Shown here in pieces: positions 37,344 through 53,884 of a stretch of 64,000 nucleotides of DNA. The notes below the pieces were generated by a model, which worked only from the letters and a program-made list of their open reading frames with translations, did no database searches and was not told the origin of the DNA. Source of the DNA: an uncultured Actinomycetes bacterium (lineage in GTDB: Bacteria > Actinomycetota > Thermoleophilia > UBA2241); NCBI GenBank assembly GCA_963845355.1, contig CAWJRV010000038.1:13590-77589 (forward strand), read 5' to 3'. The translations under genes were made by a program, and so were the position numbers. Each line of letters begins with the position of its first letter. Position 1 is the first letter of the stretch.

Positions 37344-37415
37344 CGAGAGGCACAGGGCCGGTCTCCTCTCGCCACGGTCACTACGGTTCACGTGCTCGCC
37401 TAGGTGGGTACAGTC

Positions 37416-38685: not shown

Positions 38686-38716
38686 CCAAGGCCGTGGCCG
38701 AAGTAAGAGCTGTGTC

Positions 38717-39606
38717 ATGACTGATTCTCGGGCCACCGCCGAACATCCAGGTGTAGCCGGCGGTGGCCCGGCCGACAGATCGGCGGGCCGGCGCCCGCCG
38801 CGGTGGCCTTCCGGCCTGTTCCAGGCACTGCTGTGGTTGGCTCAGCGGCTTGCTGATTGCCTTCATCGTGCTGCCCATCGTGCGCCTGGCGGCGACTTCG
38901 TCGCCCTCTAGCCTGATCAGCGCGGCAAGCGAAGCCGAGGTACGTAACGCCATCGTCTTGAGCCTGCAGGATGCGGCGATCACGGCCGTGATCGCCACCC
39001 TGCTGGGCGTGCCGCTTGCCTACCTGCTCGCCCAGCGTCGCATCCCCGCGCCCGGACTCGTGCAGGCCATCGTCGATCTGCCACTGGCGGTGCCGCACAC
39101 GGTGGCTGGCATCGCCCTGCTCGTTCTTGCTGGGGCGCACCGGCTGGGTCGGTGCCCCGGCGGGGCACCTCGGCGTGTCCTTCTACGGGTCACAGTGGGG
39201 CATCGTGGCAGCCATGCTTTTCGTCAGTGCGCCGTTTGCCGTCAACAGCGCGCGGGTCGCCTTCGAGGCGATCGACCCCAATCTCGAACGCGCCGCCCGC
39301 AGTCTGGGCGCCACTCGCGCGCATACCTTTCGTCGCATCACGCTGCCGTTGGGCGCCCGCGGCGTGCTCACCGGTGCCGTGCTGGTATACGCACGTTCGA
39401 TCGCCGAGTTCGGCGCTGTGGTGATCATCGCCTACTACCCTGTCACGGCGCCCGTCGAGATCTACAATCTGTTCCTGCGTTCCGGTCTGGCGGCTGCTTC
39501 GTCAGCCTCCGTGCTGCTGCTGATCGTGGCGCTGGCGACCTTCCTCGTGCTACGCACTCTGGCCTCTGGCCGCTGGCTGTGGATCGCTGACCGTGGCCCT
39601 CGCTGA
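38717..39606 (+). pseudogene. ABC transporter permease (molybdate/tungstate type), frameshifted
   Basis: Three frames are needed: MTDSRATAEH.. | LLIAFIVLPIVRLAATSSPSSLISAASEAEVRNAIVLSLQDAAITAVIATLLGVPLAYLLAQRR...VDLPLAVPHTVAGIALL | LLGRTGWVG...AMLFVSAPFAVNSARVAFEAIDPNLERAARSLGATRAHTFRRITLPLGARGVLTGAVLVYARSIAEFGAV (EAA-loop region). Confidence 0.8.
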
Positions 39607-40686
39607 CAGCGGCCTGGTCATCGAGGGCGTCAGAGCGCGCGCCGGCTCATTCGAGCTTGGCCCGATCGATCTCGACGTGAAATGTGATCGCGTGCTGGCG
39701 GTCCTCGGGCCCTCCGGTGCTGGCAAGACGATGCTGCTCGAGACGATCGCCGGCTTTCGCGCGGCTGCTGGCGGGCGCCATCTCGCCTGGGCGGCAGGCA
39801 GCTGGGGCGGCTGCCCCCGGAAGAGCGCGCCATCGGCTTCGTCTTCCAAAACGCAGCCCTGTTCCCGCACCTGTCGGTGCGCGACAACGTGGGCTTTGCC
39901 CTTCGCGCCCGCGGCGAGCGCCACTACGGCAGCGCGTTGACGCGCTGCTGGCTCGCTTCGAAATCATGTCACTTGCCGAGCGATCACCTGCGCTCACTGA
40001 GCGGCGGCGAGCGTCAGCGCGTGGCTCTGGCGCGAGCGCTGGCCGCGGCACCCGGGCTGCTCCTCTTGGACGAACCGCTCTCGGCGCTCGACCGACCCAC
40101 GCGCGACGATCTGCGCATCGTCCTGCAAGAGCTGCTTGGCGGACTGGGGATCCCGGCTATCCACGTCACCCACGACCGCGACGAGGCGCTCAGCATCGCG
40201 GACCAGGTCGCCGTCGTTGTCGCTGGGAAGGTTCGCCAACTGGCCGGTGCCCACGAGATCGTTGCTCAGCCGGCAGATGACACCTGCGCGCGGCTGCTGG
40301 GCTGGTCCGAGCTTGGTGTCGGACGCCTCGATCACGGCGTGCTGACGGTAGGTGCCCTCGTGCTCCCCGCTCACGGCGCTCTCGACGGCTGGAATGGTCC
40401 GGTCTCAGTCTTCTACCGGCCTGAGTCTGTGCTTCTGGGCGTCGAGGCCGCAGGAAACCCCGGCGGCGCAGCGTTCGAGGCCACGGTCGATCGCGTCCTA
40501 CCGACGACGCCGCTTGCTCGAGTCGTTCTTGGGGGCGAGACGGCCATGACCGCTCTGCTACTAGCACGCGACCTGGGGCCGCTGGACCTGCGACCTGGAG
40601 CATCAGTCAAGGTCGGGCTGCCGCCGGGCTCACTGTGCATCTTCCCGCTGGCTGATGTGCGCGACGGATCAGACCCGGTCGACTGA
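39593..40686 (+). pseudogene. ABC transporter ATP-binding protein, frameshifted
   Basis: Walker A LGPSGAGKTMLLETIAGF is in one frame. LPPEERAIGFVFQNAALFPHLSVRDNVGFAL is in a second. RVDALLARFEIMSLAERSP is in a third. It then returns to LSGGERQRVALARALAAAPGLLLLDEPLSALD...HVTHDRDEAL. The GTG start overlaps the permease stop. Confidence 0.8.
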
Positions 40687-40926
40687 TTCTTTGCTCCACG
40701 ACGGTGGCGTAGCGTTACGCTTGGAGAAGCTCGCGGGATAACCGTGCGCCAGGGAAGCCCTGCCGGTGAGTTGCAGGTGAGCTGCGGCATGGCGGCGTCC
40801 GCCATCCTGAGTACTCACGTCCATGGAATCAGGCGACGCGAACTCGACGGGCTTCATGCCTGACCTGCGGCCAGCTTGGCGCGAACCTTACGGCCAACCC
40901 TTCAGCTCCGCCCCTGTTGTGTCGAT

Positions 40927-40967
40927 GTGATTTACATCCTTATCGGAACGTGATTACCATGTATATT
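40927..40967 (+). promoter_or_regulatory. AT-rich patch with a direct repeat and a -10-like hexamer upstream of the TA pair
   Basis: GTGATTTACAT (40927-40937) and GTGATTACCAT (40950-40960), followed by TATATT. This is the only AT-rich stretch for kilobases. Its role as promoter or operator is inferred. Confidence 0.3.
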
Positions 40968-40981
40968 GCCGGGGGATAGCT

Positions 40982-41416
40982 ATGTTGTACGTAGCCAAGA
41001 GTGAAAGGTCGAGGACGATGACTGCTACCAAGTCCAACCTGGGGGAGCTGAATGGGGCGTGCCGCGCCGAGGCGATCAGGCTCGCGTTTCCGGAGCTCGT
41101 GTCGAAGCTGCAGGATCTGCTGACCCCACGACTCGTGGCCTATATCGGTTCAGTTGGTGAGACGCGCGCGGTCCGCCAGTGGGCGGAGGGCTCGCGAAAG
41201 CCGCAGGGTGACGTTGCGCGCCGGTTACGCGAGGCATACGCCCTCGCGTTGTGTATCTCACGAGAAGAGGATATCGAGGCAACTCAAGCCTGGTTTCAAG
41301 GGCTGAACCCGCTGCTCGGTGATGCTGCGCCTGCCCGGCTGCTTCGGGACGGCGACCTTGACAAGGTCGGTCCCATGGTCATCAGGGCTGAACGGCACTT
41401 CCTTGCCGAAGGGTGA
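40982..41416 (+). CDS. Xre/ParS/MbcA-type antitoxin (DUF2384 toxin-binding domain)
   Basis: 144 aa. ...TRAVRQWAEGSRKPQGDVARRLREAYALALCIS...EATQAWFQGLNPLLGDAAPARLLRDGDLDKV. The stop overlaps the GTG of the RES gene (GTGA). Confidence 0.8.
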   Translation: MLYVAKSERSRTMTATKSNLGELNGACRAEAIRLAFPELVSKLQDLLTPRLVAYIGSVGETRAVRQWAEGSRKPQGDVARRLREAYALALCISREEDIEATQAWFQGLNPLLGDAAPARLLRDGDLDKVGPMVIRAERHFLAEG

Positions 41417-42105
41417 CTCTGCTCCTCGACACCGAGGCGGCACCCACTACGCTCTACCGCGTGGGAAACGAACCGGACCCCTGGGATTGGCCGGGTTGGT
41501 CATACATCGGTGGTGAACGGTGGGATGACCCCCGTCGTGAATACCGGGTTCTCTACGCAAGCTACGATCGGGTCGGTGCACTTCTCGAGGTGTTCGCCAA
41601 GTTCCGGCCTGGCCTTGATCAGATAGTGAACGAGAGCGACCCGCATGCTGCGTCTCCCTTTCCAATGGGCGTTGTCCCTGTGGGCTGGCTGTCCCGACGA
41701 GTGATCACAAGGGGCGTCGCGTCCGGCGTGCATGGGCCGCTTGTCAAGGTGGGAGGGGAGCAGTCACTCGCGGCGCTTCGTCGTGCCTCCGATCTCGCCG
41801 CGCTGCTCGTCGCGCACGGGGTCGAGGACCTCGACACGAGCACGATCCGCAGCGCTGACGCAGACGTGACTCAGGCAATCTCAAGGGTCGTATTCGAAGA
41901 GATGCAGGCCAACGGGGACTCCTACGCCGGCATCTACTACCTCTCGCGGTACAGCGACAACGTTCCGAACTGCGCCCTTTTTGAACGCGCAACCGGAGCC
42001 CCTGTTTCGGTGACGCTCTTGGACCGCTCTTCAATCGATCCCGACGACCCCGATGTCAAGAAGGCCTGCTCGTTGCTCGACCTCGAAATGGAGCCGCTCC
42101 ACTAG
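41413..42105 (+). CDS. RES domain toxin (NAD+-targeting family)
   Basis: YIGGERWDDPRREYRVLYASYDRVGALLEVFAKF (R and E regions) and YAGIYYLSRYSDNVPNCALFE (S region). At 230 aa it is longer than the usual RES proteins. Confidence 0.85.
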   Translation: MTLLLDTEAAPTTLYRVGNEPDPWDWPGWSYIGGERWDDPRREYRVLYASYDRVGALLEVFAKFRPGLDQIVNESDPHAASPFPMGVVPVGWLSRRVITRGVASGVHGPLVKVGGEQSLAALRRASDLAALLVAHGVEDLDTSTIRSADADVTQAISRVVFEEMQANGDSYAGIYYLSRYSDNVPNCALFERATGAPVSVTLLDRSSIDPDDPDVKKACSLLDLEMEPLH

Positions 42106-42355
42106 GATGTTCGGGCCGGCGGGGAGGTGGGACAGCTCACAGTAGCTGTCGAAGGACGGCATATGACCTGACTACAGAGCGGGCCCCCGCCGGTCAATCG
42201 CCGACGGGAGCTCGCTGTGCGCGTGCTTGTGCGGTCTGGACGGGAGCAGGTGAACCCAGAGGAGTTCGAGCGGACGGAACTGCCACTGACTTTGCGGGCG
42301 GATCACAAGACCTACCGCCTCGACTGAAGGCCTGATCGAGGGAGACGGACGCCGG

Positions 42356-42736
42356 CTACGGCATGGTGTCGGGGGGCTTGTCTGACACTCGCGAAAGCGT
42401 CTCCACTGTCACCTCGGGGGACTCGTACTGGAGATGGCCCGCCGAATCGCGTTGGACGACATGCGTCTCGAACCTGGGCTTGTGGGTTGCCGGGTCTTGG
42501 AACTTCATCTCCATGATCAACTCGTTGCCGTCTCGCCTGTACAAGCTCGTGTCCAATCCGTGGCCGCGCTGGAGCACATCGACCTGGTAGACACTGTAGG
42601 TCTTGAAGATGCGCACCTCATAGGTGTCCGCCCGCCACGTCCCGACGAACGGATCCTTCGTGGCGCGGAAGGCACCCCCGGAACCGGCCAGCAGCAGGAC
42701 GACAGCAAGAATGGTGAAGTTGGCTATCACGCGCAT
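42356..42736 (-). CDS. secreted small protein (GTW lipocalin-like family, related to 47087 and 47805)
   Basis: MRVIANFTILAVVLLLAGSGGA signal, then DPFVGTWRADTYEVRIFKTYSVYQVDVL. The stretch is lower in GC. Confidence 0.65.
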   Translation of the reverse strand: MRVIANFTILAVVLLLAGSGGAFRATKDPFVGTWRADTYEVRIFKTYSVYQVDVLQRGHGLDTSLYRRDGNELIMEMKFQDPATHKPRFETHVVQRDSAGHLQYESPEVTVETLSRVSDKPPDTMP

Positions 42737-43011
42737 CGTGCGCTCCGAAGTCGCAGTTGGTCACCTTATCGGCAGCGGGGGACCCTGGCGTGAGCCACTT
42801 GCCCGCTTCCTCGATCCGGTGGGCGGGTGGCCCACACTGGTGTCAACGAAGGGCATCAAGCCCAGGCCCATGCGCGTCTTGTGGGGCGTTCTGACGCGAC
42901 TTCGGCAACGGCTTGCTCCGTCGCATATTAAGCAAAGATTAAGAACAATCGTCATTGGTGTTACGCACGCCCTAGAGGCGTCTACGCGAAGGTTGCCGGG
43001 GCAGCCTGATT

Positions 43012-43098
43012 GCGAAGGCACGAAAGGCAAACCGCCTGTGAGGGCGGGGCGCAAAGCCACAGGACTCGGAACACGGGAGTCGGCTGGGTTGCCGCGGC
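43012..43098 (+). promoter_or_regulatory. c-di-GMP class I (GEMM-I) riboswitch aptamer
   Basis: GCACGAAAGGCAAACC-[CCGCC UGUGA GGGCGG]-GGCGCAAAGCC-ACAG-[GACUC GGAACACG GAGUC]-GGCUGGGUUGCCG. It matches the GEMM-I hallmark blocks (GGCAAACC, ACGCAAAGCC, GGGUUGCCG) and the two-hairpin layout of Vc2-type aptamers. Confidence 0.75.
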
Positions 43099-43120
43099 AG
43101 CGCGCGTGACGCTGCAGTAC

Positions 43121-43160
43121 GACCTGTGGCTAGCCGGAGAGGAGCCGCGGGTCGTTTTTT
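43121..43160 (+). terminator. intrinsic terminator (riboswitch expression platform)
   Basis: GACCUGUGGC (43121-43130) pairs with GCCGCGGGUC (43144-43153): 10 bp, two of them G-U. A 13-nt loop, then GUUUUUU. It sits 69 nt before the pilin ATG. Confidence 0.7.
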
Positions 43161-43228
43161 CGTGGTCACCTCGCAAACAGCAGGGTCTGTAAGGTTTCGA
43201 CTCGATTGCGAAGGAGGTGACAACTCAC

Positions 43229-43648
43229 ATGAAGTCATTCACCAAGACCAAGGGCGAAAAGGGGTTCACCCTCATCGAGCTCCTGATCGTGATCATCATC
43301 ATCGGTATCCTGGCGGCGATCGCCATCCCGATGTTCCTGAATCAGAGGGACAAGGCCAAGGACGCCGCCGTCAAGGAGGGCATCCACAGCATCCAGGTGG
43401 GTATCGAGAGCTACGCGGTCGACCACAGCGACGCCTTCCCGGGCACCATCACCGACAAGACGCAGCTCGTCGACGCCAACGGCAACAACTACGTGGACAA
43501 CTGGCCCAAGAACCCGTTCTCCACGACCGGCGCCTACATGCAGAGCGGTACCGACCAGGGCAACTACACCTACACCGACATCCCGGCCTCGAGCACCTTC
43601 ACGCTGCAGGGCCACCTGTCCAACAGCGGACAGTTCCAGGTTCCGTGA
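43229..43648 (+). CDS. type IV pilin (prepilin N-terminal cleavage/methylation domain)
   Basis: ATG after [43 protein letters not shown] is the class III signal. Confidence 0.9.
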
Positions 43649-43674
43649 TCCAGGTTCGTCTGGATTGAGTGCCC

Positions 43675-43710
43675 CGAGGGGGCGGCTCTGCCGGTGCAAA
43701 GCCGCCCCCT
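43675..43710 (+). terminator. perfect 12-bp hairpin between the two pilin genes (no U-tract)
   Basis: GAGGGGGCGGCT (43675-43686), a 12-nt loop, AGCCGCCCCCTC (43699-43710). Confidence 0.35.
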
Positions 43711-43758
43711 CGAACGAGCATCGTGCCGGCAACCGATGGACCAGGGAGGGCAGCTCAG

Positions 43759-44157
43759 ATGAGAAAGCGCGCAGGCCAAAGGGGCTTCACGCTCATCGAG
43801 CTCCTGATCGTGATCATCATCGTCGGTATCCTGGCGGCGATCGCCATCCCGATGTTCTTGAACCAGAGGAACAAGGCCAAGGACGCCGCCGTCAAGGGCG
43901 GCGTGCACGTCATCGAGCTCGGCATCGCAAGCTACGCCATCGACCATGCCGACACGTATCCGGTCGCAGTGTCGAAGGCTACTCTGCTCGACACCAACGG
44001 CAGCTCCTACGTCGACAACTGGCCGAAGAACCCGTGGACGAATGTCGACATGCAGGACAGCTCCAATCTCGGCGACTACACCTACACGCAGATCGGCGGC
44101 GGCACGAACTTCCAGGCCGTGGGCCACATGAGCAGCGGCGGTTGGACAGTCCCGTAG
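43759..44157 (+). CDS. type IV pilin, tandem paralog
   Basis: ATG after [53 protein letters not shown]. It shares YVDNWPKNP with the first pilin. Confidence 0.9.
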
Positions 44158-44478
44158 GCGCTGCCGTCGTGACGAGGCATCCGTCGGTCGTAGCGGGCTC
44201 GAACCGCGCTTCACCCAAGTCGACGAGCGGACGGCGCGGCGCGGCGCACAATCCTTCAGGCTCGCCGAGCCACTTCTGCCGTTGCCGTCGCTGGTCTCGC
44301 CCACAGCCCAGCCGTGAGAGGGCAGTAGCGTACCTGTTCACGCCGAACGTTCCGCGCCCATGGTAGCCACGCTTCCACGCCCGCTTCAACCGGGCCGGAG
44401 GACGCTTCTCCAAAGCGGGCTGCGAGTGTCGCTGAGTGTCGTCGGGGCCGCTCCGTACCATCTTCTAGCGCCACGTTC

Positions 44479-44507
44479 GGTTGCAGGAGGGTTGCAAGCG
44501 GGTTGCA
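44479..44507 (+). repeat. three GGTTGCA iterons at 11-bp phasing
   Basis: cGGTTGCAggagGGTTGCAagcgGGTTGCAgaa. The copies start at 44479, 44490 and 44501. Confidence 0.85.
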
Positions 44508-44567
44508 GAAGGCGTTCCGAGAACACCGAGAAATGCATAAAACACCTGCAAATACGCCTGAAATGGG

Positions 44568-44614
44568 TGGTAGCGCATACCGGATTCGAACCGGTGTTAC
44601 CGCCGTGAGAGGGC
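44568..44614 (-). repeat. duplicated 3' half of tRNA-Glu (att-type direct repeat)
   Basis: TGGTAGCGCATACCGGATTCGAACCGGTGTTACCGCCGTGAGAGGGC is identical to 52041-52087. It covers the stretch from the anticodon stem to CCA. Confidence 0.9.
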
Positions 44615-44730
44615 AGTAGCCTTGGTGTCAGGGAGTGCCGCCGAGTGCCTTCAAGTGCCATCTCACGCTTGGCAAACCGAACCGAATTGCCGCCGAGTAC
44701 CACTGAGCGCCACCTAACGCAGCTGCCTTC

Positions 44731-44748
44731 GGTTGCAGGATGGTTGCA
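44731..44748 (+). repeat. two GGTTGCA iterons at 11-bp phasing (left arm of the island)
   Basis: cGGTTGCAggatGGTTGCAaga, in the same orientation as the triplets at 44479 and 51952. Confidence 0.8.
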
Positions 44749-44940
44749 AGACGCCGATGCGTGGCCGAAACCGCGCTACCGAGACGTCCGACTGTGAGGG
44801 CCCTGACCAAGACAGCCACCGCCCTCCATTTTCGCGCGAGCCTACGTTGCACAGCCGCCGCAGAGGTCTAGTATGGATATCGGAGGGGCCTGCGCCGGCG
44901 CGGCTGTGTGCAGCCCGACACGCATCGGTGGGGGGTCGCT

Positions 44941-46263
44941 GTGAGACGCCTGTTGACTTGTGCGTTCGCCGTGCTTGGCGCTGTGCTGCTTCTGGTGCCC
45001 GCCCCGGCGCTGGGGTCGCCAGGCGCGAGTCTCACCCCGGGTGCGGTACCGGTGAGTCATGTCGAGTCAGCGCAACTCGGCGGGGTCACCTATGCCATCA
45101 GCGGCACCGTCCTCGACTACTCGGGTAACCCCGTCAGTGGTGCTGCCGTCGGGTGGGGATGGATGCCGCCCGGCTATGAGCTGGATCCTTTGGTCGCGGC
45201 TCAGTTCGGAGGAGGCGTGCTAAGCACAGGTGGCCAGTTCTCGTTTACCACCGTCAGCTCGCACCCGGGCAACGACTGCCTCTTGGTGGAATACGAGGCT
45301 GCGTTTTCGCAACCACAATGGCTGGCAAGCTGGGCGTATGATTTCTCGGCGAATAACCAGGCAAGCTCGTACCGCTACTCCGTGCAGCCCGGCGCCATCG
45401 ACATACAGATCACCAAGCCGCCCGTCGGCTTCGATCCTCAGGTCGATGTCTACGGCGCTAACGGCATGGCTCAGTCCTTCCCCTCCCTGTTTTCGGGCGT
45501 GGAGCTCGTCCCGATGGCACCGCCGAGCTTCAACGACGTCGTGGTCAGTGACGTGCAGACGCCAGGCGACGCACAGAACGTGACGGCGGCTGCCGAGTGG
45601 CTGAGCCCAAGCGCGGTTCCTGTGGCCGCCGGGTCACAGGCATCCAGCCCGGTCGTCTTCGACTGGAGCCACGCCCAGCGCGCCTACCTCGCCGGGCCAC
45701 CCTGCCAGCACTGCGGTCGGCCGGGAAGCGTCGTCAGGGTGGTCCTCAAGGGCTGGCCGGCCGGTGAGAAGGCCGGCTTTCAGCTCACCGACTACAAGCC
45801 CTACCCGACCCAGGTGTCCTCCGCTGGTACCGACAAGACCTACGTCGTCAAACTACGAATCCCCAATAGCGCTGATCCGGGCGAGTCCTACGACCTGACC
45901 ACCTACCGCACCGACGACCCTGCCAGTCACCTCAGTCTGTGGGATGGTTTCCAGGTGTGCGCCTTCAGATCGACTGCCGACGTCGTCGTGCGCGGCACGG
46001 GCATCCGACTGCGCGGCACGGTGCCGTCGGCCGCACGGACTGTCTGGCTGTTCGCACGACACAGCGCAGCGGCGCGGCCGGCAACAGTGACTGCGCCGGG
46101 TTGGCACAAGGTCGGCCACTACCGGGCAAACGACAACGGCACGTTCGTGAGCGCTCTGCTTCATCCGAGCCGTACCACCTGGTATGTGGCGCGGTACCCG
46201 CGCAGCAGTGACGACGGCCCGAGCTTCTACTTCACACCGGTCGTCAAGGTCAGCGTGCGCTAG
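44941..46263 (+). CDS. secreted protein of an uncharacterised family of about 450 aa (paralog of 34941..36293)
   Basis: GTG (or the upstream start at 44908). VRRLLTCAFAVLGAVLLLVPAPALG signal. Shared blocks are GPPCQHCGRPGSVVRV, YVVKLRIPNSADPGESYDLT, LLHPSRTTWYVARY, FTPVVKVSVR. Confidence 0.8.
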   Translation: MRRLLTCAFAVLGAVLLLVPAPALGSPGASLTPGAVPVSHVESAQLGGVTYAISGTVLDYSGNPVSGAAVGWGWMPPGYELDPLVAAQFGGGVLSTGGQFSFTTVSSHPGNDCLLVEYEAAFSQPQWLASWAYDFSANNQASSYRYSVQPGAIDIQITKPPVGFDPQVDVYGANGMAQSFPSLFSGVELVPMAPPSFNDVVVSDVQTPGDAQNVTAAAEWLSPSAVPVAAGSQASSPVVFDWSHAQRAYLAGPPCQHCGRPGSVVRVVLKGWPAGEKAGFQLTDYKPYPTQVSSAGTDKTYVVKLRIPNSADPGESYDLTTYRTDDPASHLSLWDGFQVCAFRSTADVVVRGTGIRLRGTVPSAARTVWLFARHSAAARPATVTAPGWHKVGHYRANDNGTFVSALLHPSRTTWYVARYPRSSDDGPSFYFTPVVKVSVR

Positions 46264-46350
46264 GGGCGCTGCCCAAACGCCTCGCGTTCGGCAGTCAGCG
46301 TAGGACGTGGCTCGTTGGATGCGGGCATCTGCGGGTGGGCAAGGTGGCCG

Positions 46351-46450
46351 TCCCGGATACATCTCCGAGGCCGCGGAAGGTATCTCCGTCGCGCTCAGAG
46401 GTGGTCGGGGCTATCCGTGGCCGCGGTGAGCAGGAGAAGGCGGGGAAAGG
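46351..46450 (+). repeat. copy B of the unexplained intergenic element
   Basis: It shares the 25-mer GGCCGCGGAAGGTATCTCCGTCGCG with copy C, plus ...GGGCTATC(C/T)GTGGCCGCG(G/A)TGAGCA... Confidence 0.75.
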
Positions 46451-46584
46451 CCGCGAAATACGCCGAGTCGATGCCGACGGTGTCGCGCATCAAGGCATGC
46501 CCGTGCGACCGTGACGGCTTACGGAGAGAAGCGTAGGCTTTGTCGCAGTTGCTCGGCATGCACAACTACTGTCAGGCAGGGTGA

Positions 46585-46968
46585 ATGTTCGGACGCCAGC
46601 ACAACAAGCTCGTCAGTCACTTCCGCGCTTCGGCCGAGGAGGGCTTCGTCAACCTGCGCTGGCGTGTCACAGAAGCAAACGACGCTCGCTACCGAGTGTT
46701 GCGCTCGGAGCGACGCTACCCCGAGACGCCTGAGGCCACCGCCGACTGGGATCTCCTGTGGGAGGGTGCCGACTGCGACTATCAGGACCGCGGGGCGGCC
46801 GGGCAGCGACACTACTTCTATGTTCTCTACGCCCGCGGTCCTGCCGGTGACTGGCAGGAGCAGAGTCGCGCCCGCGTGAAGGCCAAGTCGTCGCCGGTAG
46901 AGCGCGCGTCTATTGAAGCGCGCAACCTCGGCATCGGGACCTATCCCATCCCTCCGACCGGACACTAG
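46585..46968 (+). CDS. small cytoplasmic Fn3-like protein (family with 52382 and the fragment at 49287)
   Basis: 127 aa. HFRASAEEGFVNLRWRV...YRVLRSE...WDLLWEG...GQRHYFYVLYARGPAGDW. No signal peptide. Confidence 0.6.
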   Translation: MFGRQHNKLVSHFRASAEEGFVNLRWRVTEANDARYRVLRSERRYPETPEATADWDLLWEGADCDYQDRGAAGQRHYFYVLYARGPAGDWQEQSRARVKAKSSPVERASIEARNLGIGTYPIPPTGH

Positions 46969-47086
46969 GCGCCGCCACATCTAGCAAGCGCATCAACATG
47001 ACGCGCCCGAGTGCCGCGATAGACTCCAGCCGCAGTCCGCGCAGGTTGTGCGCCCGACGTTAGCCCGACAGGCAGAAGGGGGAGCA

Positions 47087-47554
47087 ATGCTACTCCGCAG
47101 GTCTCGAATCCGCTGCGCTGCGCTCGGGCTTACGCTACTGCTGTCACCTTGCATGGTGGCCTCCGCCTGCGGCTCCGCCTCCGCCTCTTGGCAGGGAACC
47201 TGGATACCGACCTCCGGCGCGCTGCGTTTCCCCCATGAACTGGGGGAGGGTGGGCTCGCCTGGGCTCCGTCGGCCAAGTCCGGAGGCGGCATCGTTATCA
47301 CCAAGGCCGGCGACTCCTATGTCGCCACCCTTGTCAGCGACGACGGCACCCGCGTCCAGGGCAAGGCCGTAGTGCAAGGCAGAGACCTGCTCGTCTCCTA
47401 CGGCGTAGCCCGGTACCTCCTGCTCCCCGACGCGGCCGACAAGACCCGCCTGCTGCTGGCGGGCGACCAGGGCGGCTCGCCCGCGCCCCAGGTGGCGGCC
47501 ACCCTGCAGCCTGGCGCTCTTGCCCCGACACCCGTCGCGACGAATCTGCCGTGA
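47087..47554 (+). CDS. lipoprotein (GTW lipocalin-like family)
   Basis: ATG after GGGGGAG. LLLSPCMVASACGS lipobox. WQGTWIPTSG...IVITKAGDSYVATLVSDDGTRV. Confidence 0.7.
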   Translation: MLLRRSRIRCAALGLTLLLSPCMVASACGSASASWQGTWIPTSGALRFPHELGEGGLAWAPSAKSGGGIVITKAGDSYVATLVSDDGTRVQGKAVVQGRDLLVSYGVARYLLLPDAADKTRLLLAGDQGGSPAPQVAATLQPGALAPTPVATNLP

Positions 47555-47582
47555 ACTACTCAATGATCGTTAAGGCTCTCCA

Positions 47583-47682
47583 CCTCCGGATGCGCCTCCG
47601 CGGCCGCGGAAGGTATCTCCGTCGCGTTTCGAGGAGTCCGGGCTATCTGTGGCCGCGATGAGCACAAGAACGCGAAGGAGAG
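47583..47682 (+). repeat. copy C of the unexplained intergenic element
   Basis: CTCCGGATGCGCCTCCGCGGCCGCGGAAGGTATCTCCGTCGCGTTTCGAGGAGTCCGGGCTATCTGTGGCCGCGATGAGCACAAGAACGCG... Confidence 0.75.
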
Positions 47683-47804
47683 GCGTCGAGCGCACGCGGG
47701 TCGAGAGCGCGGGAAGGTCGAAGGCCAGAGCCATCACCCTGGCCCTACTGCTATGCTAGTCGTCAGGCGTACAGCGTCAACGCGACACAGGGGGTGTGAG
47801 GCCG

Positions 47805-48215
47805 ATGCGTTTCGTTACCAAGGCAGCCCTTGCCGCTTCGGTCGCGCTGACCTGCCTTCTTACGGTATCGGCCTGCGGCAACGGCATGAGCGGCTCGTGG
47901 GTGCCCAGTCGGGGAAGCGTCGTCTGGACAGACAAACAGGGGACTAGCGGCTACGACTTCGGCGGCACGGCGGCGCGGCCGGGTGGGCTGATCATCTCGA
48001 AAGACGGCGGGGGCTACAAAGTGACCCTCGTGAGCCGCGACGGTTCGCGCTACCCGACCATCGCGGGGATGGGCGGGGCCAGGCTGGAAGTCTTCGTTGG
48101 CGGCGCGCTCGTGCCGATGTTCTTCCTCTCCCAAGCCGCTACGAACACCTTGTCCATGGAGGCGCAGGAAGGTGGCTTTGTACACGTCATGGACTTCAAG
48201 CGGGGTTCGCCCTAG
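47805..48215 (+). CDS. lipoprotein (GTW lipocalin-like family, paralog of 47087)
   Basis: MRFVTKAALAASVALTCLLTVSACGNG lipobox. SGSWVPSRG...LIISKDGGGYKVTLVSRDGSRY. Confidence 0.7.
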   Translation: MRFVTKAALAASVALTCLLTVSACGNGMSGSWVPSRGSVVWTDKQGTSGYDFGGTAARPGGLIISKDGGGYKVTLVSRDGSRYPTIAGMGGARLEVFVGGALVPMFFLSQAATNTLSMEAQEGGFVHVMDFKRGSP

Positions 48216-48398
48216 CCGTTCGTCACACTCGCCGGGATGAAGCCCACCCCTCACGACCCCGCCTCCGGCTCCAGCAGGCGACCCGGCACGACTGCGCGCG
48301 CCTATCGGGTGCGCCGTGAGCGCGACCGCGGCGAAGGGCGACCGGGTCAAGGCCGCGGGCGATCGTGCTCAAGGTCGCCACAGTGTTAGGATTATCAG

Positions 48399-49034
48399 AT
48401 GAGGCGCGGCCTTGTCATGGTTCTCGTGGCGGTCTTTCTCGTTGGGGGCTGCACGAGCAAGTCCGCCGCGCCTCCAATCGCCACCCCCATCCCGCACGCG
48501 AAGACCTTCGCCAGCCGCGACCTGCGCTTCTCGGTGTCCTACGACGCGAGCAGACTCGTCGACAGCATCAGCAGTTCCTACTCCGGGCTAGCAGGAAACT
48601 GGCTCGTCGTCTACTTCACCGACGGCGACACCAGAGGACGGCCATCGACGCGGCCCTACGGTCCGAACGGGGGGCTCGGCATCGACGCTGAAGAGGTCAT
48701 GCTCCCCGAGCCGTCGCTTTCCGCTGCCCGCGTCTCGCTGTCGACCGACTACACTGCGGTGGGCGCGCCGCCCGGAACCACCGTCTTCATGATGAAGCAG
48801 CAGTTCGCGCACTTCACCGTGGGCGCGGTCGAACCCATCACGTTGAACGGGCTTTCGGGTTACCGAATCCACTACTCGTGGACCGGCGGCTCCGCGGAGA
48901 CGTACGAGCTGTACAAGCTCCTCGACCACACGCCCTACGGATACACGCTCACGCTCACGCTCAGCGGCAAGGCTCGCCCTGCCTACAGGCAGGCGCTGGA
49001 CGCCGCCCTGCAGTCGTTCGCCGTCACGCGGTAG
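48399..49034 (+). CDS. lipoprotein, possibly PsbP/DUF1795-like
   Basis: MRRGLVMVLVAVFLVGGCTS lipobox. ...LRFSVSYDASRL...ITLNGLSGYRIHYSW...YTLTLTLSGKARPAYRQALDAALQSF. The fold call is inferred. Confidence 0.7.
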   Translation: MRRGLVMVLVAVFLVGGCTSKSAAPPIATPIPHAKTFASRDLRFSVSYDASRLVDSISSSYSGLAGNWLVVYFTDGDTRGRPSTRPYGPNGGLGIDAEEVMLPEPSLSAARVSLSTDYTAVGAPPGTTVFMMKQQFAHFTVGAVEPITLNGLSGYRIHYSWTGGSAETYELYKLLDHTPYGYTLTLTLSGKARPAYRQALDAALQSFAVTR

Positions 49035-49286
49035 CGCCTGCTGCCTGACTAGATCACCCTGCGGGAATGCGGGCACGTGCGGGTAGGTAGGACGGCCACT
49101 CCGAACGCCGCAACCGATTCGAGGCCGTTGGCGTCCCACTAGCCTGGCCACCCAGCCGCAAGGCGACGTGTGCCCGAAAGCGTGGGCCGAGCATACACTC
49201 ATGCGGCTTGTGCTATCGTCACCGTAGTAGCTTCGTCAGGCCGGTTGCCAGCGACGACGCCGGCGCGGGCACTGGGAAGGATGGTC

Positions 49287-49466
49287 ATGCACCTGTTCGG
49301 AAACAGCAGCGGACCGCATCTGGCTCACTTCCAGGCCTACCGCGATCACGGTCACGTCGAACTGGACTGGGAGGTGCGAAACGCTCCTCCGCTGAACTGG
49401 CCCAGGCGGCCAGGAGCCTTTGGCCGAAGCACCGATAGGAAGCCTTTTGGACTGACCGACCCCTGA
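49287..49466 (+). pseudogene. N-terminal fragment of an Fn3-like protein of the 46585 family
   Basis: MHLFGNSSGPHLAHFQAYRDHGHVELDWEVRNAP resembles LVSHFRASAEEGFVNLRWRVTEAN. The rest diverges and stops early. Confidence 0.35.
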
Positions 49467-49756
49467 GTCGTATGCGGTGCACTCCCCACAAACCCAGGCT
49501 GCTCTTAGGATTCTGACGCCTCATCCGGCGCGAAATCGTGGCTGATATCGGCCTGTGCCAACGATCCGCCAACGTCAGGGAGGGCAGCCTCGGCGTACCG
49601 GCACCCCGTCTGGACGTCGCGCGCGCCCGTGCGGGCGCGCGCGACTGGGCAATCCGTGCCCGCCGCGAGTGCCCTCCGACTTCCGATCAGCAGACCGTGT
49701 CGGAGGCCAGCGCGGCCGGCCCGGCTGCTCTATGCCGGTCCGCTTCGAGCCATCGC

Positions 49757-50144
49757 CTACCTACCAAGAGCCAGCTGAATCACGATGAAGACCAGCGAGG
49801 GCAGGGCGAAGCCGATGAAGACAAGGCCCGGTGCGACGAGCGGCGCAGGATATGCCCTGAACCGTCGACTACGGGAGAATCCTCGACTGACCGGCAGAGG
49901 CGAGAGCAACCCGATGCCGAGCGTCAAGCCGCCCAAGGCGATGACGGTTACTCCACCGGTTAGCAAGCGGTGAGCAGCCGAGATCGAGCAGGCCTAGAAC
50001 TGCGGCACCCAATACGGGAGCGCCCGCAACTAGGAGCACGCCAGGCCACGGCGACGGCCGGGGCTCAGGTGGTCGCGGGACGGCGACGTGCCCTTGCCAG
50101 TGCTCGACCTTGCCTTGCTTCGGTTCTTGTGGCGTGTCACTCAT
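49757..50144 (-). pseudogene. membrane protein apparently split by a frameshift near 49970
   Basis: MSDTPQEP...WPGVLLVAGAPVLGAAVLGLLDLG is in one frame. It continues as LLTGGVTVIALGGLTLGIGLL...LVAPGLVFIGFALPSLVFIVIQLAL in another (ORFs 49869..50192 and 49757..49966). Confidence 0.35.
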
Positions 50145-50411
50145 CGCGCGCACCTGTTTCTGCGTGGGTCGTCCCCAGGCAATCCTACTCAACTACATCA
50201 TACTGCAGCGACCGCGCAGCACAGCCTGGGTGTCCTGGCCAGGGCCCGGTGCCGGCCAAGCCAAGGCGGCCAGATCGGCTGCGGTGGCACGGTGGCAACG
50301 TGGTCGGCACCTGGAGGGTACCGATATCGATGAGGAGGTCGCGATGGGGGAGTTGCTCGCCGACTAGGCACTCAGTAGGCTGTTGGAGTCGACTCAGGGG
50401 GGCTGACTGAC

Positions 50412-50723
50412 GTGATTGCTGCGCTGCTGATCATCGCGGCCATCTTCTGGGTCGGCGCAGCTTTTGGTCTCGGATACTGGTGCAAGATCATCTGGCAGCG
50501 CAAAGCGCGTTCGCCGTGGGCTGGTTTTGCCTTGGGGACCCTGCTGTCTCTCTTGGAGACTCCCATCGCCGGACTCGCCGTGGTGGGTGTAAGTTACGCG
50601 CTTGCCGACCGGTCCAAGGGGCCGTCGCCTCGCTCCGCCGTCGCCGTCGTCGGCCTGGTTGCGGTGGCCGCGATCGTCGTGTTCAGCGTTGTCTTTCAAG
50701 CCGTGGTACACGCCCATGGCTAG
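50412..50723 (+). CDS. small membrane protein (3 TM)
   Basis: GTG start. IAALLIIAAIFWVGAAFGLGYWCKII...FALGTLLSLLETPIAGLAVVGVSYAL...AVVGLVAVAAIVVFSVVF. Confidence 0.6.
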   Translation: MIAALLIIAAIFWVGAAFGLGYWCKIIWQRKARSPWAGFALGTLLSLLETPIAGLAVVGVSYALADRSKGPSPRSAVAVVGLVAVAAIVVFSVVFQAVVHAHG

Positions 50724-50812
50724 GTCGTGAGAGTCGCGAGCATCTTGCTGGCTCCCGTTTTGGCCCTGGGCTGCTGTGCCGGCAAGTCTGTCGCAGGGCG
50801 GAGGTTCTGCAC

Positions 50813-51094
50813 GTGAGACCGACCGGCGCAGCGGCTGTCGTTGTCGTGATTCTCGCTAGTCTGCTCGCGGCGTGCGGCGGACAGGCGTCACACGCGCAAA
50901 GTCCGTCGCAATCAGCCATGCCGTTACAACCCTCCCTCGGCTTCACTGTGGACCGAACGACGGCCGACCCAATCCGCATGTCGGCGATCCACTCGCGGAA
51001 TAAGCTCGCAGACATTTACTCTCGGACATCACTATCACCTCGTCTAATTCTGGCAATGCTCCGACTTCCGCAAAGGATCGCAGTTCGAGTTTGA
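50813..51094 (+). CDS. short lipoprotein; the C-terminus is doubtful
   Basis: GTG after GGAGG. VRPTGAAAVVVVILASLLAACGG lipobox. The last 40 codons are in lower-GC sequence and may be out of frame with 51091..51591. Confidence 0.45.
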   Translation: MRPTGAAAVVVVILASLLAACGGQASHAQSPSQSAMPLQPSLGFTVDRTTADPIRMSAIHSRNKLADIYSRTSLSPRLILAMLRLPQRIAVRV

Positions 51095-51591
51095 CCTCGA
51101 GGAGAACTCTCCGAGCGGGGGAGGTGGCGACGAGCTGGTGGGAGTGGGACGGTACGGCAGAAATCAGTACGGCACGGACCAGGTTACTGGAAGTGACCAT
51201 ACGCAGCTATCTCGACCGCTCGGACTATACGAACGGCAAGCGGGTCTACCCGAGCTCGTACGAACTTCGGGTCTCCGCCAAGGCATGCCATTGGTCGCTT
51301 GAGGTGCTCTGCGACGGGCATTCGCTGCTCACCTACACAGGACGTGGCTTCGCCGTGACCTACGATCCCGCCAAGGCTAGCCTCTCGGCCGCTCCGATGT
51401 TCAAGAAGGGCGCCTCTGTGATCGTTGGCGAAGGCATGCAGATGTACAACGACCAGTACGCCCTCGTACTGGAAATCGTCAACGATGGGGCGTCCCGCAT
51501 CGGCCGCAGAAGCCACGATGATGGCTCGCGTGATGCACAGGCGGCCTCGACCTTGCTCGACTCGACGGCGCACGGGGTTATGAGGTCATGA
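51091..51591 (+). CDS. hypothetical protein
   Basis: 166 aa from a TTG. The start is uncertain and the composition is normal (…YELRVSAKACHWSLEVLCDGHSLLTYTGRGFAVTYDPAKA…). Confidence 0.45.
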   Translation: MTSRRTLRAGEVATSWWEWDGTAEISTARTRLLEVTIRSYLDRSDYTNGKRVYPSSYELRVSAKACHWSLEVLCDGHSLLTYTGRGFAVTYDPAKASLSAAPMFKKGASVIVGEGMQMYNDQYALVLEIVNDGASRIGRRSHDDGSRDAQAASTLLDSTAHGVMRS

Positions 51592-51951
51592 TGCGGCAGG
51601 ACGGCACCGATGTGGGCCGGTACCTGCTTGAGGCTACGCCGTTTTCGCTACATGATGGTGACCATGACCGACAGCAAACCACGGTGGTCGAGTCGTCTGG
51701 AGCGGCTCGTCAGGTCGGTGAGATTCCTACGCTGACCGCAGGGGCGTAACAGGAGCGAACGGCTCGGGAGCCAAATCCGTTACAGCGCGGGGTGTTCACT
51801 TTCGGGGCGGTCGCTATACCCCCGCTGAGCAGCCCGGAGGCTGGCGTGGTGGGCGACGTTGGAATCGGACCAGCGACCTCCACCGCGGGTGAGCGGTGTG
51901 CGGATGAGTGTCGTCGAGCGTCGCTCCGCGCCATCTTGTAGCGCGGATTTC

Positions 51952-51980
51952 GGTTGCAGACGGGTTGCAAGCTGGTTGCA
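51952..51980 (+). repeat. three GGTTGCA iterons at 11-bp phasing (tRNA-proximal arm of the island)
   Basis: cGGTTGCAgacgGGTTGCAagctGGTTGCAgag. The copies start at 51952, 51963 and 51974. Confidence 0.85.
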
Positions 51981-52040
51981 GAGAGGCTTCTGAGGCAGGC
52001 GAGAAACGCACAAAACCCCTGCATCTACGCCTGAAGAGGG

Positions 52041-52116
52041 TGGTAGCGCATACCGGATTCGAACCGGTGTTACCGCCGTGAGAGGGCGGCGTCCTAGGCC
52101 CCTAGACGAATGCGCC
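52041..52116 (-). tRNA. tRNA-Glu(CUC): tRNA-Glu, anticodon CUC, CCA encoded
   Basis: The reverse complement is GGCGCAT TC GTC TAGGGGCCTA GGAC G CCGCC CTCTCAC GGCGG TAAC ACCGG TTCGAAT CCGGT ATGCGCT A CCA. It forms a cloverleaf with a G1-U72 wobble and has the same architecture as E. coli tRNA-Glu. Confidence 0.9.
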
Positions 52117-53780: not shown

Positions 53781-53830
53781 CTCTGTCTCCCTCCGGGGGC
53801 CTGAAAAGGATGCACGGCATCCTACCCGGC

Positions 53831-53884
53831 GGACCGTGCGCTAACCTGACGGACCGTGCGCTAACCTGACGGACCGTGCGCTAT
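53831..53884 (+). promoter_or_regulatory. 2.7 copies of a 20-bp tandem repeat in a divergent promoter region, ending in a -10-like TATACT
   Basis: GGACCGTGCGCTAACCTGAC x2, then GGACCGTGCGCTAT. TATACT is at 53882-53887, 7 nt before the ATG at 53895. Confidence 0.6.

Follow-up and report, generated by a model that had tools for sequence, protein, structure and literature searches.

How did the 3' half of a tRNA-Glu gene come to lie far from the intact gene, with cargo but no integrase in between? This is the question raised by the window, as the whole stretch of DNA analysed is called here: 64,000 nt of contig CAWJRV010000038.1 from Thermoleophilia UBA2241, to which all coordinates refer. The region is very probably one segment, now decayed and without an integrase (CIME-like), of a tandem-accretion array, which originated by integrase-driven accretion and decay.

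The tRNA-Glu gene, its displaced half and the attachment-site arms

The sole tRNA gene detected in the window by ARAGORN is an intact tRNA-Glu(CUC) on the minus strand (52041-52116; Rfam 56.9 bits). Its 3' 47 nt, which constitute the attL core identity block (52041-52087, minus), recur exactly and in the same orientation, as originally reported, in a displaced 3' half at 44568-44614 (minus; 47/47 identical) that forms the core of an internal attP-like junction. The identity runs from tRNA position 30, three base pairs into the anticodon stem, through CCA, and in all aligned copies, those of the window as well as those of relatives, the boundary of tRNA identity falls at position 29-33. Crossover appears to take place within the 7-nt anticodon loop, CTCTCAC. 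The window has three copies of the 13-nt core where 0.34 would be expected, three being reached in 0/100 shuffles.

The imperfect similarity of about 150 nt that had been noted beyond the tRNA end was recovered in a gapped alignment of 44418-44567 with 51901-52040 (114 identities in 153 columns); an ungapped pairing of 44449-44625 with 51922-52098 is 82% identical over 177 nt, and a profile search with nhmmer lengthens both P' arms, to 44384 and 51854. The element-derived P' arm downstream of the tRNA, arm A (51854-52040, minus; nhmmer 52089-51854 = profile 190-434, E 1.2e-61), bears GGTTGCA at 51952, 51963 and 51974, an 11-nt period, together with the conserved block CCC..TTCAGGCGTA.ATGCAGGGGTTTTG. 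P' arm B (44384-44567, minus), about 75-82% identical to arm A, has the same heptamer at 44479, 44490 and 44501. The P arm of the 7.47-kb unit, arm C (44615-44773, minus; within an nhmmer match of 44773-44384, E 1.5e-110), contains the AGTAGC junction, four GTG(T/C)C repeats with an exact 10-nt period (44625, 44635, 44645 and 44655) and two GGTTGCA sites (44731 and 44742), and its columns are kept in 13 complete units. AGTAGC directly follows the core in both units, at 44324 and 44615, in agreement with the original prediction. The window has 12 GGTTGCAR sites, eight of which fall within the three arms at the 11-nt period; about 3 would be expected per window, and 12 were reached in 0/100 shuffles. 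Judged from their sequence, the repeats of the att arms may have binding roles.

The same site in relatives, and a full-length element

The window repeats are pieces of one conserved attP-like site of about 400 bp, in which two TGCAACC motifs are followed by GGCAC-type repeats, the anticodon-loop core, the remaining tRNA and three further TGCAACC motifs. The site was found in metagenome contigs of the window's lineage and, at the orthologous tRNA-Glu, in two MAGs from Thermoleophilia, orthology being indicated by flanking glyoxalase and LbH genes that are 60-70% identical in amino-acid sequence. Three lineages supplied 13 complete internal junctions, which align across about 400 nt, with the core and the TGCAACC and GGCAC repeats as conserved columns. 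In both MAGs the intact tRNA-Glu(CUC) is followed by displaced halves that all begin at tRNA position 29-33, at least 10 of them across about 150 kb in one case. The exact 47-mer is present in 37 metagenome contigs, among them about 20 intact tRNAs, which the P' arm follows in most, and about 11 displaced halves, which the P arm precedes. Relatives differ in arrangement, as had been anticipated, the cargo downstream of the orthologous tRNA-Glu being unlike in every genome and contig examined.

Such arrays, including those of both Thermoleophilia MAGs, contain a tyrosine integrase of 384-387 aa, the 384-aa protein having Phage_integrase (4e-26) and Phage_int_SAM_3 domains and a weak match to Arm-DNA-bind_4; the MAG arrays also hold truncated integrase copies and fragments. 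The window's lineage does contain the full-length partner that the original prediction sought, with the same arms, 47-nt core and GCTACT junction and with a tyrosine integrase; it was reconstructed from contigs L187, L186 and L191. L187 carries a complete unit, in which the GCTACT junction and an identical 47-nt half are both present, and, about 6.3 kb downstream of this unit, Prim-Pol/PriCT/AAA_25, integrase (P0004), HTH and HD genes; the element continues on L186/L191 up to a second complete unit, for a total of about 20.6 kb. No conjugation genes were seen in this element. The integrase clade and the TGCAACC arms are linked by co-occurrence in three contexts. In those elements the integrase and the att site are not adjacent but 4-7 kb apart, which counts against the main reading.

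Near its P-arm end the 20.6-kb element has an ORF that shares 85% of amino acids and 88% of nucleotides with window positions 44846-45529; it matches the start of the window's 451-aa gene and has, with respect to the P arm, the orientation of that gene. The other cargo of the 7.47-kb unit has no similarity to the 20.6-kb element and, with a single gene shared, descent from that element by deletion is one possibility among others.

Cargo and older remnants

The plausible genes of the cargo region (44774-51853), as judged from ORFs, translations and Pfam, all lie on the plus strand. They encode a secreted protein of 451 aa (44908-46263), an Fn3-like protein of 127 aa (46585-46968), two lipoproteins (47048-47554 and 47796-48215), a DcrB-like lipoprotein (48399-49034), an Fn3-like fragment (49170-49466) and a small membrane protein (50412-50723), followed by an ORF of 166 aa (51091-51591). 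The original claim that no integrase lies between the repeats was borne out by Pfam (30 ORFs) and by tblastn on the whole window, in which no cognate-type integrase from relatives matched at better than E 0.3; excisionase and replication genes are likewise absent from the 7.47-kb cargo by ORF translations and Pfam. When the element proteins of relatives were compared with the window by tblastn, the sole matching region was 44956-45522. Frameshifted cargo is present in the window, and the codon-position GC signal is weak across 49.1-51.1 kb. A paralogue of the 451-aa gene, 40% identical to it, lies at 34941-36458, and G+C content is only slightly under that of the flanks. The cargo looks lineage-native rather than foreign, which was counted against the island reading.

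Beyond the 7.47-kb unit, the 19-nt junction repeat GCCGTGAGAGGGCAGTAGC is found at 44311-44329 and 44602-44620, exactly as first described. It belongs to a truncated junction (44311-44337, minus; nhmmer 44337-44311, E 0.02) in which the last bases of the P arm (..GTACGCTACT) are followed by the 13-nt core GCC-CTCTCAC-GGC, and from which the remaining tRNA half is absent. The loop 9-mer occurs 65 times across all related loci, and among these 44311-44337 is the sole truncated copy of this type. Of the 0.3-kb "miniature element" proposed for this stretch the junction repeat stands and the element does not: a P' arm is followed by the truncated P-end/core junction and, since a profile search recognised no P arm with TGCAACC sites in this unit, "att remnant" is the better term.

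A decayed P'-arm fragment without a core (GTGCAACCCTCCTGTAACCGAAACTGG..GATGG..) lies at 36426-36506 (minus; nhmmer E 1e-14, profile 310-391), matches by blastn the arms of contigs L149, L155, L157, L165, L173 and L182, and adjoins the start of the paralogue gene, which encodes 505 aa on the minus strand. It marks an older array segment, so that the span of 44311-52116 first given for the island has correct coordinates but falls short of the full extent. The intervening 36507-44310, which has the lowest G+C of the window (0.62-0.66) and att remnants at its ends (44311-44337 and 36426-36506), probably belongs to the array. It includes a DUF4760 gene (Pfam), an ABC-transporter operon with a frameshift (37668-40686), a RES toxin pair (40982-42105), one gene for a lipoprotein, and two pilin-like genes preceded by an element that resembles a c-di-GMP riboswitch. 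In relatives, att units have homologues of window 31.4-33.6 kb and of 20-22.8 kb as immediate neighbours.

Origin of the array and comparison with known systems

Several other origins for the displaced half have to be weighed. That it was duplicated during assembly is scarcely credible: the source contig is metagenome-derived, and an independent short-read contig, L193, ends inside the repeat, at 44591, but the flanks of the two copies are unlike on both sides and more than 15 further contigs and MAGs show the P-core-P' junction in assemblies of their own. Because the arms are about 20-25% diverged while the core is identical, and the same architecture appears in independent assemblies, the repeat is not an assembly artefact. 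Recombination of a homologous or illegitimate kind, without a site-specific integrase, might have duplicated the segment that holds the tRNA 3' region; such an event would also produce a direct repeat, and duplication plus divergence could give the 150-190 nt or so of similar sequence downstream of both copies. This origin is disfavoured and quite improbable, as the core matches at 47/47 and the arms at about 75-82%, whereas uniform divergence would leave 47 straight matches with an estimated p of about 1e-5. Moreover, the 5' boundary is the anticodon loop in every copy from several genomes, the displaced halves are preceded by a conserved P arm that is unrelated to the tRNA 5' half and is not found upstream of tRNA-Glu in relatives as ordinary chromosomal sequence, and the same sites bound integrase-bearing elements.

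The many copies per genome, in relatives, of a unit of about 300-400 bp with a tRNA fragment might instead suggest a transposing, tRNA-derived non-autonomous repeat (MITE- or SINE-like) that is near the tRNA by chance. This is highly improbable, given that the copies lie on one side of tRNA-Glu (in genome A, 9/9 blocks at 1.072-1.224 Mb of one contig), that unit ends have no terminal inverted repeats or target-site duplications, and that the units join unrelated multi-gene segments, each beginning exactly at the anticodon loop. An integron-like cassette platform, wherein a resident integrase captures and reshuffles integrase-less, att-flanked cassettes at tRNA-Glu and the integrase-less state is normal, accords with several observations: most segments between halves lack an integrase in both MAGs, with one intact copy per array in the blocks examined; internal junctions retain complete sites of about 400 bp with motif columns conserved across lineages; the units of the genome A array face both ways, which is what site-specific inversion would yield; and the cargo genes of the window unit all point one way. 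Such a platform is nevertheless unlikely. Pieces and shortened copies of the integrase are scattered through the arrays, some att sites are truncated or decayed and the window has frameshifted cargo, all of which indicates decay, not maintenance; the integrase moves in an element that is complete in itself, replication module included, and is not fixed beside the tRNA; and the segments are multi-gene blocks of 0.3-20 kb with no evident shared promoter.

Tandem accretion at tRNA-Glu, the origin first proposed, is supported by the integrase-bearing element with the same sites in the lineage and by the same anticodon-loop boundary in all copies. Elements of this family, with a gene set of three-domain tyrosine integrase, Prim-Pol/helicase replication gene, HTH protein and HD protein, would insert through recombination between their attP and the anticodon-loop region of tRNA-Glu(CUC). 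The attP, of about 400 bp, comprises, in order, two TGCAACC motifs, four GGCAC-type repeats of 10-nt period, GCTACT, the core and remaining tRNA, a conserved trailer and three TGCAACC motifs. Every integration would rebuild the tRNA and displace older elements outward, such that the internal junctions would all resemble attP (P-core-P'). Integrase and replication genes would have been lost through later deletions. The tRNA-proximal unit (44615-52040; 7,473 bp core to core) still has a complete attL and a complete internal attP-like junction and has lost all mobility genes, the next unit is down to a P' arm ending at the truncated junction, and the older arm fragment at 36.4 kb is a further survivor.

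Lacking mobility genes, the 7.47-kb unit is unable to move on its own. As the core and all eight heptamer sites are intact, circular excision in the manner of a CIME could occur if a cognate integrase and a directionality factor were provided in trans, and present-day mobilisability in trans is conceivable, if rather doubtful, on the strength of these sites; current mobility is unsupported, as the unit yielded neither an excision junction nor an empty site, nor any polymorphism for its presence or absence. Since relatives keep the same insertion-site signature with an integrase, the region is of a kind already known, an ordinary remnant of a genomic island, here in an actinobacterial lineage from soil that has been little studied.

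In Dehalococcoides, islands at ssrA reportedly form direct-repeat tandems in a variable region. The high-plasticity regions of these genomes harbour ssrA-targeted genomic islands and, as far as the source describes them, share with the present locus site-specific integration at one small-RNA gene, and differ in the target, tmRNA there and tRNA here, and in integrase family and cargo (PMC3146451). The tDNA islands of Islander/TIGER likewise have an intact tDNA with a displaced direct 3' fragment and a crossover centred on the anticodon loop, a class accounting for 2083/3919 islands in the database, and tandems are recognised there, 125 of two or more and 4 of three or more (PMC4383910). Islander requires an integrase gene per island, whereas the window units have none, and the arrays of relatives, with at least 10 fragments, are larger than the integrase-bearing tandems listed there (PMC4383910).

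Prochlorococcus tycheposons, which carry tyrosine recombinase, primase/helicase and excisionase genes and integrate at tRNA genes, offer a likeness of organisation: in their islands, too, successive integrations displace older elements inward, and the islands contain degenerate elements, integrases in fragments and partial tRNAs at scattered places (10.1101/2020.12.28.424599). They differ in phylum, habitat (soil and peat metagenomes here) and target tRNA; the att site described here is unusually long and richly patterned, and the window is without the hallmark genes (10.1101/2020.12.28.424599). Tandem accretion itself is known from the ICESt1/ICESt3-type elements and CIMEs of streptococci (Pavlovic 2004; Bellanger 2011; both as summarised in PMC5704250). 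Compared with the systems outlined in that summary, the present array belongs to Thermoleophilia and uses the tRNA-Glu anticodon loop in place of the fda 3' end or tRNA-Lys, its integrase-bearing partner has a Prim-Pol/helicase module with no conjugation genes seen, and cis-mobilisation is putative (PMC5704250). By the same outline, both share site-specific integration beside a resident element, which yields tandem arrays with an attP-like internal junction (PMC5704250).

The displaced tRNA-Glu half and its att sites

The window contains a single tRNA gene, a tRNA-Glu(CUC) at 52041-52116 on the minus strand (ARAGORN; Rfam score 56.9 bits). The last 47 nt of this gene (52041-52087) recur with 100% identity and in the same orientation at 44568-44614, the identity beginning at tRNA position 30. 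An ungapped pairing of the two copies that runs past the tRNA 3' end gives 82% identity over 177 nt, and 44418-44567 agrees with 51901-52040 in 114 of 153 columns when gaps are allowed. The 19-mer GCCGTGAGAGGGCAGTAGC is found at both 44311-44329 and 44602-44620; its first 13 nt, comprising the 7-nt anticodon loop CTCTCAC and 3 bp of stem on each side, are present three times in the window against an expectation of 0.34. Repeat, arms and 19-mer were all rechecked, and every coordinate of the original prediction was correct. The fragment boundary at the anticodon loop is a canonical sublocation, and is the same in all related copies.

The flanking arms share a heptamer, GGTTGCA (TGCAACC in the tRNA orientation), that forms direct repeats with an 11-nt period in all three arm regions: three copies after the displaced half (44479, 44490 and 44501), three after the intact tRNA (51952, 51963 and 51974) and two within the 7.47-kb unit, close to its far end (44731 and 44742). 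Eight of the 12 GGTTGCAR sites of the window fall in the arms; about three sites would be expected in the window, and no shuffled sequence reached 12. Between the far-end heptamer pair and the core lie four copies of GTG(T/C)C with an exact 10-nt period (44625-44655). Read in the tRNA orientation, the region consists of the tRNA, P' arm A, cargo, P arm C, the displaced half, P' arm B and a truncated junction. Within it, 44384-44773 is an internal junction built like an attP (P arm, core, P' arm), which is the expected product of tandem integration of related elements. The core is identical at 47 of 47 positions whereas the arms are about 75-82% identical, as fits two related but different elements supplying arms A and B.

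An alignment of thirteen complete internal junctions, drawn from the window, MAGs and metagenomes, spans about 400 nt. Conservation falls on the core and the rest of the tRNA half, on a trailer (CC..TTCAGGCGTA..GCAGG.GTT.TG), and on the TGCAACC and GGCAC repeats; between and outside these the sequence is variable, and the flanking cargo is unrelated. A search of 43-53 kb against Rfam at E<=1 found no RNA family in the arms, the only matches being the tRNA and a riboswitch-like sequence described below.

A profile of the att unit (nhmmer) gave four matches in the window, all of them on the minus strand: a full unit at 44773-44384, the core with its P' arm at 52089-51854, the end of a P arm with core at 44337-44311 (E 0.02), and a newly found, decayed P'-arm fragment at 36506-36426 (E 1e-14), which abuts the start of a 505-aa paralogue of a cargo protein. 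The third match bears on the 0.3-kb (291-bp) unit, which had been proposed to be a miniature element. This unit is a P' arm, homologous to other P' arms as far as about 44384, where it changes abruptly to ..GTACGCTACT followed by 13 nt of core. The P-arm match of the 291-bp unit in the profile search is limited to 27 nt (E 0.02), on which ground the reading as a cargo-less complete element was discarded. The loop 9-mer occurs 65 times in related loci, with no second copy of such a truncated junction. The unit is best read as an element deleted down to one arm, or as a secondary-site event, and not as a functional miniature element.

Cargo, missing mobility genes and the extent of the array

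The cargo of the 7.47-kb unit lies entirely on the plus strand and encodes a 451-aa secreted protein, two small Fn3-like ORFs, three lipoproteins (one DcrB-like), a small membrane protein and a 166-aa ORF; the codon-position G+C signal is weak at 49.1-51.1 kb. No integrase, excisionase, relaxase or replication protein was matched by Pfam among 30 ORFs in and around the region, and integrases from the relatives gave no homologue in the whole window by tblastn (best E 0.3), in agreement with the original claim that such genes are missing between the repeats. Likewise there are no HTH_17 excisionase, Prim-Pol or relaxase-like matches in 44.3-52.1 kb, and the 7.47-kb unit yielded no trace of an integrase or replication pseudogene.

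The 451-aa protein (44908-46263, plus strand) belongs to a very narrow family, for which a search of 5.8 billion proteins gave eight homologues at E<=1e-10, and has a 40%-identical secreted paralogue, over about 410 aa, in the 505-aa protein encoded at 34941-36458 on the minus strand. The gene of the latter starts at the att-arm remnant, and the 451-aa gene adjoins the P arm. In exact-protein look-ups the 451-aa sequence matched just one 2-kb Logan contig, from run ERR11594402 and identical to the window, and the glyoxalase beside the tRNA had no match. A conserved non-coding motif of about 100-130 nt (..CCGAGTAC.TCTCCGAGGCCGCGGA.GGTATCTCCGTCGCGCT..GGGGCTATCTGTGGCCGC..GAGCGCGAGA..) is located 35-135 nt upstream of plus-strand genes at 46353-46450, 47586-47684 and 25241-25344, and is also present in array cargo of related loci (L187 3870-4002; L182 731-866 and 1521-1657; L178 64-207; L155 402-505). 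This leader-like motif has no Rfam match, and its predicted hairpin is without covarying pairs.

Several lines of evidence extend the array beyond the span originally reported, 44311-52116, which holds its best-preserved part. In addition to the arm fragment at 36426-36506, the G+C minimum of the window (0.62-0.66) falls at about 36 to 52 kb. On the metagenome contig L160, the 268 nt that come immediately after the tRNA and P' arm match window 31460-31727 at 95.5% identity, and in L155 a homologue of window 33143-33649 sits 1.2 kb from an att unit. An ABC-transporter operon at 37668-40686 on the plus strand (substrate-binding protein, permease and ATPase) is split over several frames, with partial Pfam matches only, whereas long genes elsewhere in the window are intact; its genes are probably real pseudogenes in the low-G+C array region and not sequencing errors. 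Together the profile matches, the G+C minimum, L160 and L155, and the split ABC genes place the reach of the hotspot at 36.4 kb at least, and it probably extends beyond 31 kb.

Other features of this region were also recorded. A 97-aa zinc-ribbon-like ORF is shared with L160 (window 31412-31705, minus strand; L160 267-534), where the P' arm immediately precedes it; its 95.5% nucleotide identity is far above the 86% of the arms. A match to the c-di-GMP-I-GGC riboswitch at 43019-43097 on the plus strand (54.5 bits, E 7e-11, slightly below the gathering score, which is 59) is followed after about 120 nt by two pilin-like genes in tandem (43217-43648 and 43669-44157). Both genes have N_methyl motifs, and they have in common a 190-nt stretch of 85% identity. 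At 40982-42105 (plus strand) there is an overlapping ORF pair, the second member of which contains a RES toxin domain (E 2e-10); the first has no Pfam match and looks like the cognate antitoxin.

The site in relatives and an integrase-bearing element

A scan for the triple heptamer in one genome per species returned many unrelated repeats, for example in an Alloprevotella MAG, as did a scan of a viral collection. Among the matches listed only those of Thermoleophilia are relevant, and repeated matches were found in at least two uncultured MAGs of this class. Both MAGs have an intact tRNA-Glu(CUC) with the upstream neighbours of the window, glyoxalase and LbH genes at 60-70% amino acid identity, and the tRNA-Glu locus is therefore orthologous in the two. 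(Between the divergent glyoxalase and LbH genes of the window, at 53824-53883, a 20-nt unit, ACCYGRCGGACCGTGCGCTA, is repeated three times in tandem.) Downstream, both MAGs contain displaced 3' halves, every one of which starts at tRNA position 29-33. Counts read from the 8-kb blocks that contain an exact pattern match are minima: at least ten halves, in both orientations, from 1,080,186 to 1,222,664 of one contig (CAVYDV010000008.1) of MFD03804.bin.2.198, and at least two on the tRNA-bearing contig of MFD09964.bin.1.34, with more on another contig. In the former array, covered at 1.072-1.224 Mb by blocks L068, L008, L022, L100, L012, L040 and L024, the halves (at least ten) occupy about 150 kb on the downstream side of the orthologous tRNA; their orientation is direct to 1.126 Mb, inverted at 1.158-1.217 Mb and direct again after 1.220 Mb. 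They carry two T-loop variants, TTCAAAT and TTCGAAT, and IS110, IS3 and IS256-type transposase genes lie among them.

The exact 47-mer was found in 37 metagenome contigs. About 20 of these contain the intact tRNA, followed in most by a P' arm of the window type, and about 11 contain displaced halves that are preceded by the same P arm, ending ..GACACCAACGCTACT. The upstream flanks of many are 77-87% identical in nucleotide sequence to window 52.1-55.9 kb, and these contigs belong to the lineage of the window itself. The empty tRNA-Glu site that the original prediction had hoped for was sought among these relatives, and none was found: each intact copy with enough downstream sequence carries some element arm.

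The identical tRNA-Glu 3' half is also joined to different arms, in other element families (L158, L179, L152/L183 and L194-L197). L158 and L179 have integrases of their own, about 40% identical to the clade studied here where compared; the arms of L179 contain TTGTTGCCG repeats and those of L152/L183 TGCTACC repeats. Four IMG/VR contigs with the same tRNA half likewise belong to families with other arms. Most families that use the tRNA-Glu core have in common the first 11 nt or so past CCA (CC.TCTTCAGG), so the common core may extend beyond the tRNA end. The tRNA-Glu site is a general hotspot, used by several element families with different arms and integrases. Known phages and plasmids yielded no similar attP, merely a 45-nt tRNA-like match, and integrases at most 37-40% identical.

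A 384-aa tyrosine integrase is encoded inside the arrays of both MAGs, the two copies being 88% identical to each other (Pfam: Phage_integrase, 4e-26; Phage_int_SAM_3; a weak match to Arm-DNA-bind_4). Near it are a truncated second copy and C-terminal fragments. Homologues with 59-63% identity are present on metagenome contigs, among them P0004, and this protein leads to what the original prediction had called for, a full-length element that has these arms and an integrase. Contig L187 has a complete att unit (nhmmer E 2e-100) whose 47-nt half and GCTACT junction are identical to those of the window. About 6.3 kb downstream are two small ORFs, a Prim-Pol/PriCT_1/AAA_25 gene, the integrase P0004, an HTH gene, two small ORFs and an HD gene. 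L187 overlaps L186 with 99.9% identity, L186 is the reverse of L191, and L191 supplies the other end of the element, a second complete att unit (E 7e-101); arithmetic on the coordinates puts the two cores about 20.6 kb apart. The arms of the window are about 81-84% identical to the two att units of this element, with the core and GCTACT junction identical. On L185, a related contig, a gene of the HTH_17 excisionase type lies upstream of the one for replication.

The P arm of the 20.6-kb element is adjoined by a gene for a 914-aa BNR-repeat protein with 91% nucleotide identity to window 19965-22804. Beside it, a 288-aa ORF (P0125) is 85% identical in amino acid and 88% in nucleotide sequence to window 44846-45529, that is, to the upstream region and first part of the 451-aa cargo gene, and its orientation with respect to the P arm is the one seen in the window. 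This is the one gene (85% aa) that the 7.47-kb unit shares with the element, the remaining cargo being unrelated.

Probable accretion and decay, and known systems

The att sites have a conserved architecture, a constant boundary at the anticodon loop and physical linkage with one integrase clade, and integrase fragments, truncated sites and frameshifted cargo are the products of decay. By analogy with tyrosine integrases that have arm-binding domains, the crossover would occur inside the 7-nt loop, flanked by the inverted stem bases GCC/GGC. The TGCAACC repeats would then be arm-type sites for the N-terminal domain of the integrase or for a directionality factor, and the GGCAC repeats may be arm-type sites too. 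Elements integrating one after another, at the tRNA or at att sites already resident, with later loss of mobility genes by deletion, would yield the present arrangement. The complete attL and internal junction would allow an integrase acting in trans to excise a circle of 7,473 bp, a product predicted from the intact sites. With these refinements, the sites of the relatives and the integrase element support the original reading of accreted integrase-less elements, or fossils of them.

Other accounts fare less well. The unit is not an integron, in that there is no integrase beside the tRNA in the window or the MAGs, the segments are multi-gene, and the sites are attP-like units of about 400 bp, rich in direct repeats, and not the hairpins of attC. 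Nor is it a MITE- or SINE-like repeat: the units are bounded by no inverted repeats, and the copies cluster downstream of tRNA-Glu. A bolder version of accretion holds that, in this Thermoleophilia lineage, a single tRNA-Glu(CUC) gene is the anchor of a large stock of att-flanked segments under active reshuffling, which extends over 20 kb here and over at least 150 kb in a relative. The recombination would be supplied in trans by one Int/Prim-Pol element family, and most of the segments, though without an integrase, would keep complete sites of about 400 bp under selection, the whole being a tycheposon- or integron-like plasticity engine for secreted and surface proteins, not a graveyard. We consider this unlikely.

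Accretion and decay at a tDNA are well known; what is new here is the host lineage, together with an att site that is long and well defined and the large extent of the arrays in relatives. The site and integrase family document how the variable genome region is built in an actinobacterial class that has hardly been studied and is known mostly from metagenomes of soil and peat. The att definition, a core with two phased classes of direct repeats, is precise enough for automatic detection of islands, whereas annotation tools that demand an integrase miss integrase-less islands of this sort. The clade of P0004 and the L102-type integrase, together with its site of about 400 bp, is a candidate tool for site-specific integration at tRNA-Glu(CUC).

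Three known systems come closest. Prochlorococcus tycheposon islands arise by successive integrations that drive older elements inward, leaving fragmented integrases and scattered partial tRNAs (10.1101/2020.12.28.424599). The hallmark set of tyrosine recombinase, primase/helicase and excisionase is absent from the window. A comparable set exists in the relatives (Int with Prim-Pol/PriCT_1/AAA_25 in L186/L187, HTH_17 in L185), the likeness being one of gene content. Of partial tRNAs beside the tRNA, another trait of these islands, the window has one full half, one 13-nt core and one arm fragment, and the relatives have at least ten halves with several integrase fragments. Islander catalogues tDNA islands with an anticodon-centred attP and tandem arrays (PMC4383910). 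The window has the intact tRNA and directly oriented displaced 3' fragment of such an island, but an Islander island has an integrase between tDNA and fragment, and the window unit, which has none, falls outside that definition. Cis-mobilizable elements (CIMEs) and their tandem accretion are known in streptococci (PMC5704250). Like these, the window unit lies between att sites that are related to the sites of an element with an integrase, and it is without integration, excision and transfer genes of its own; the 7.47-kb unit is, by structural definition, a CIME.
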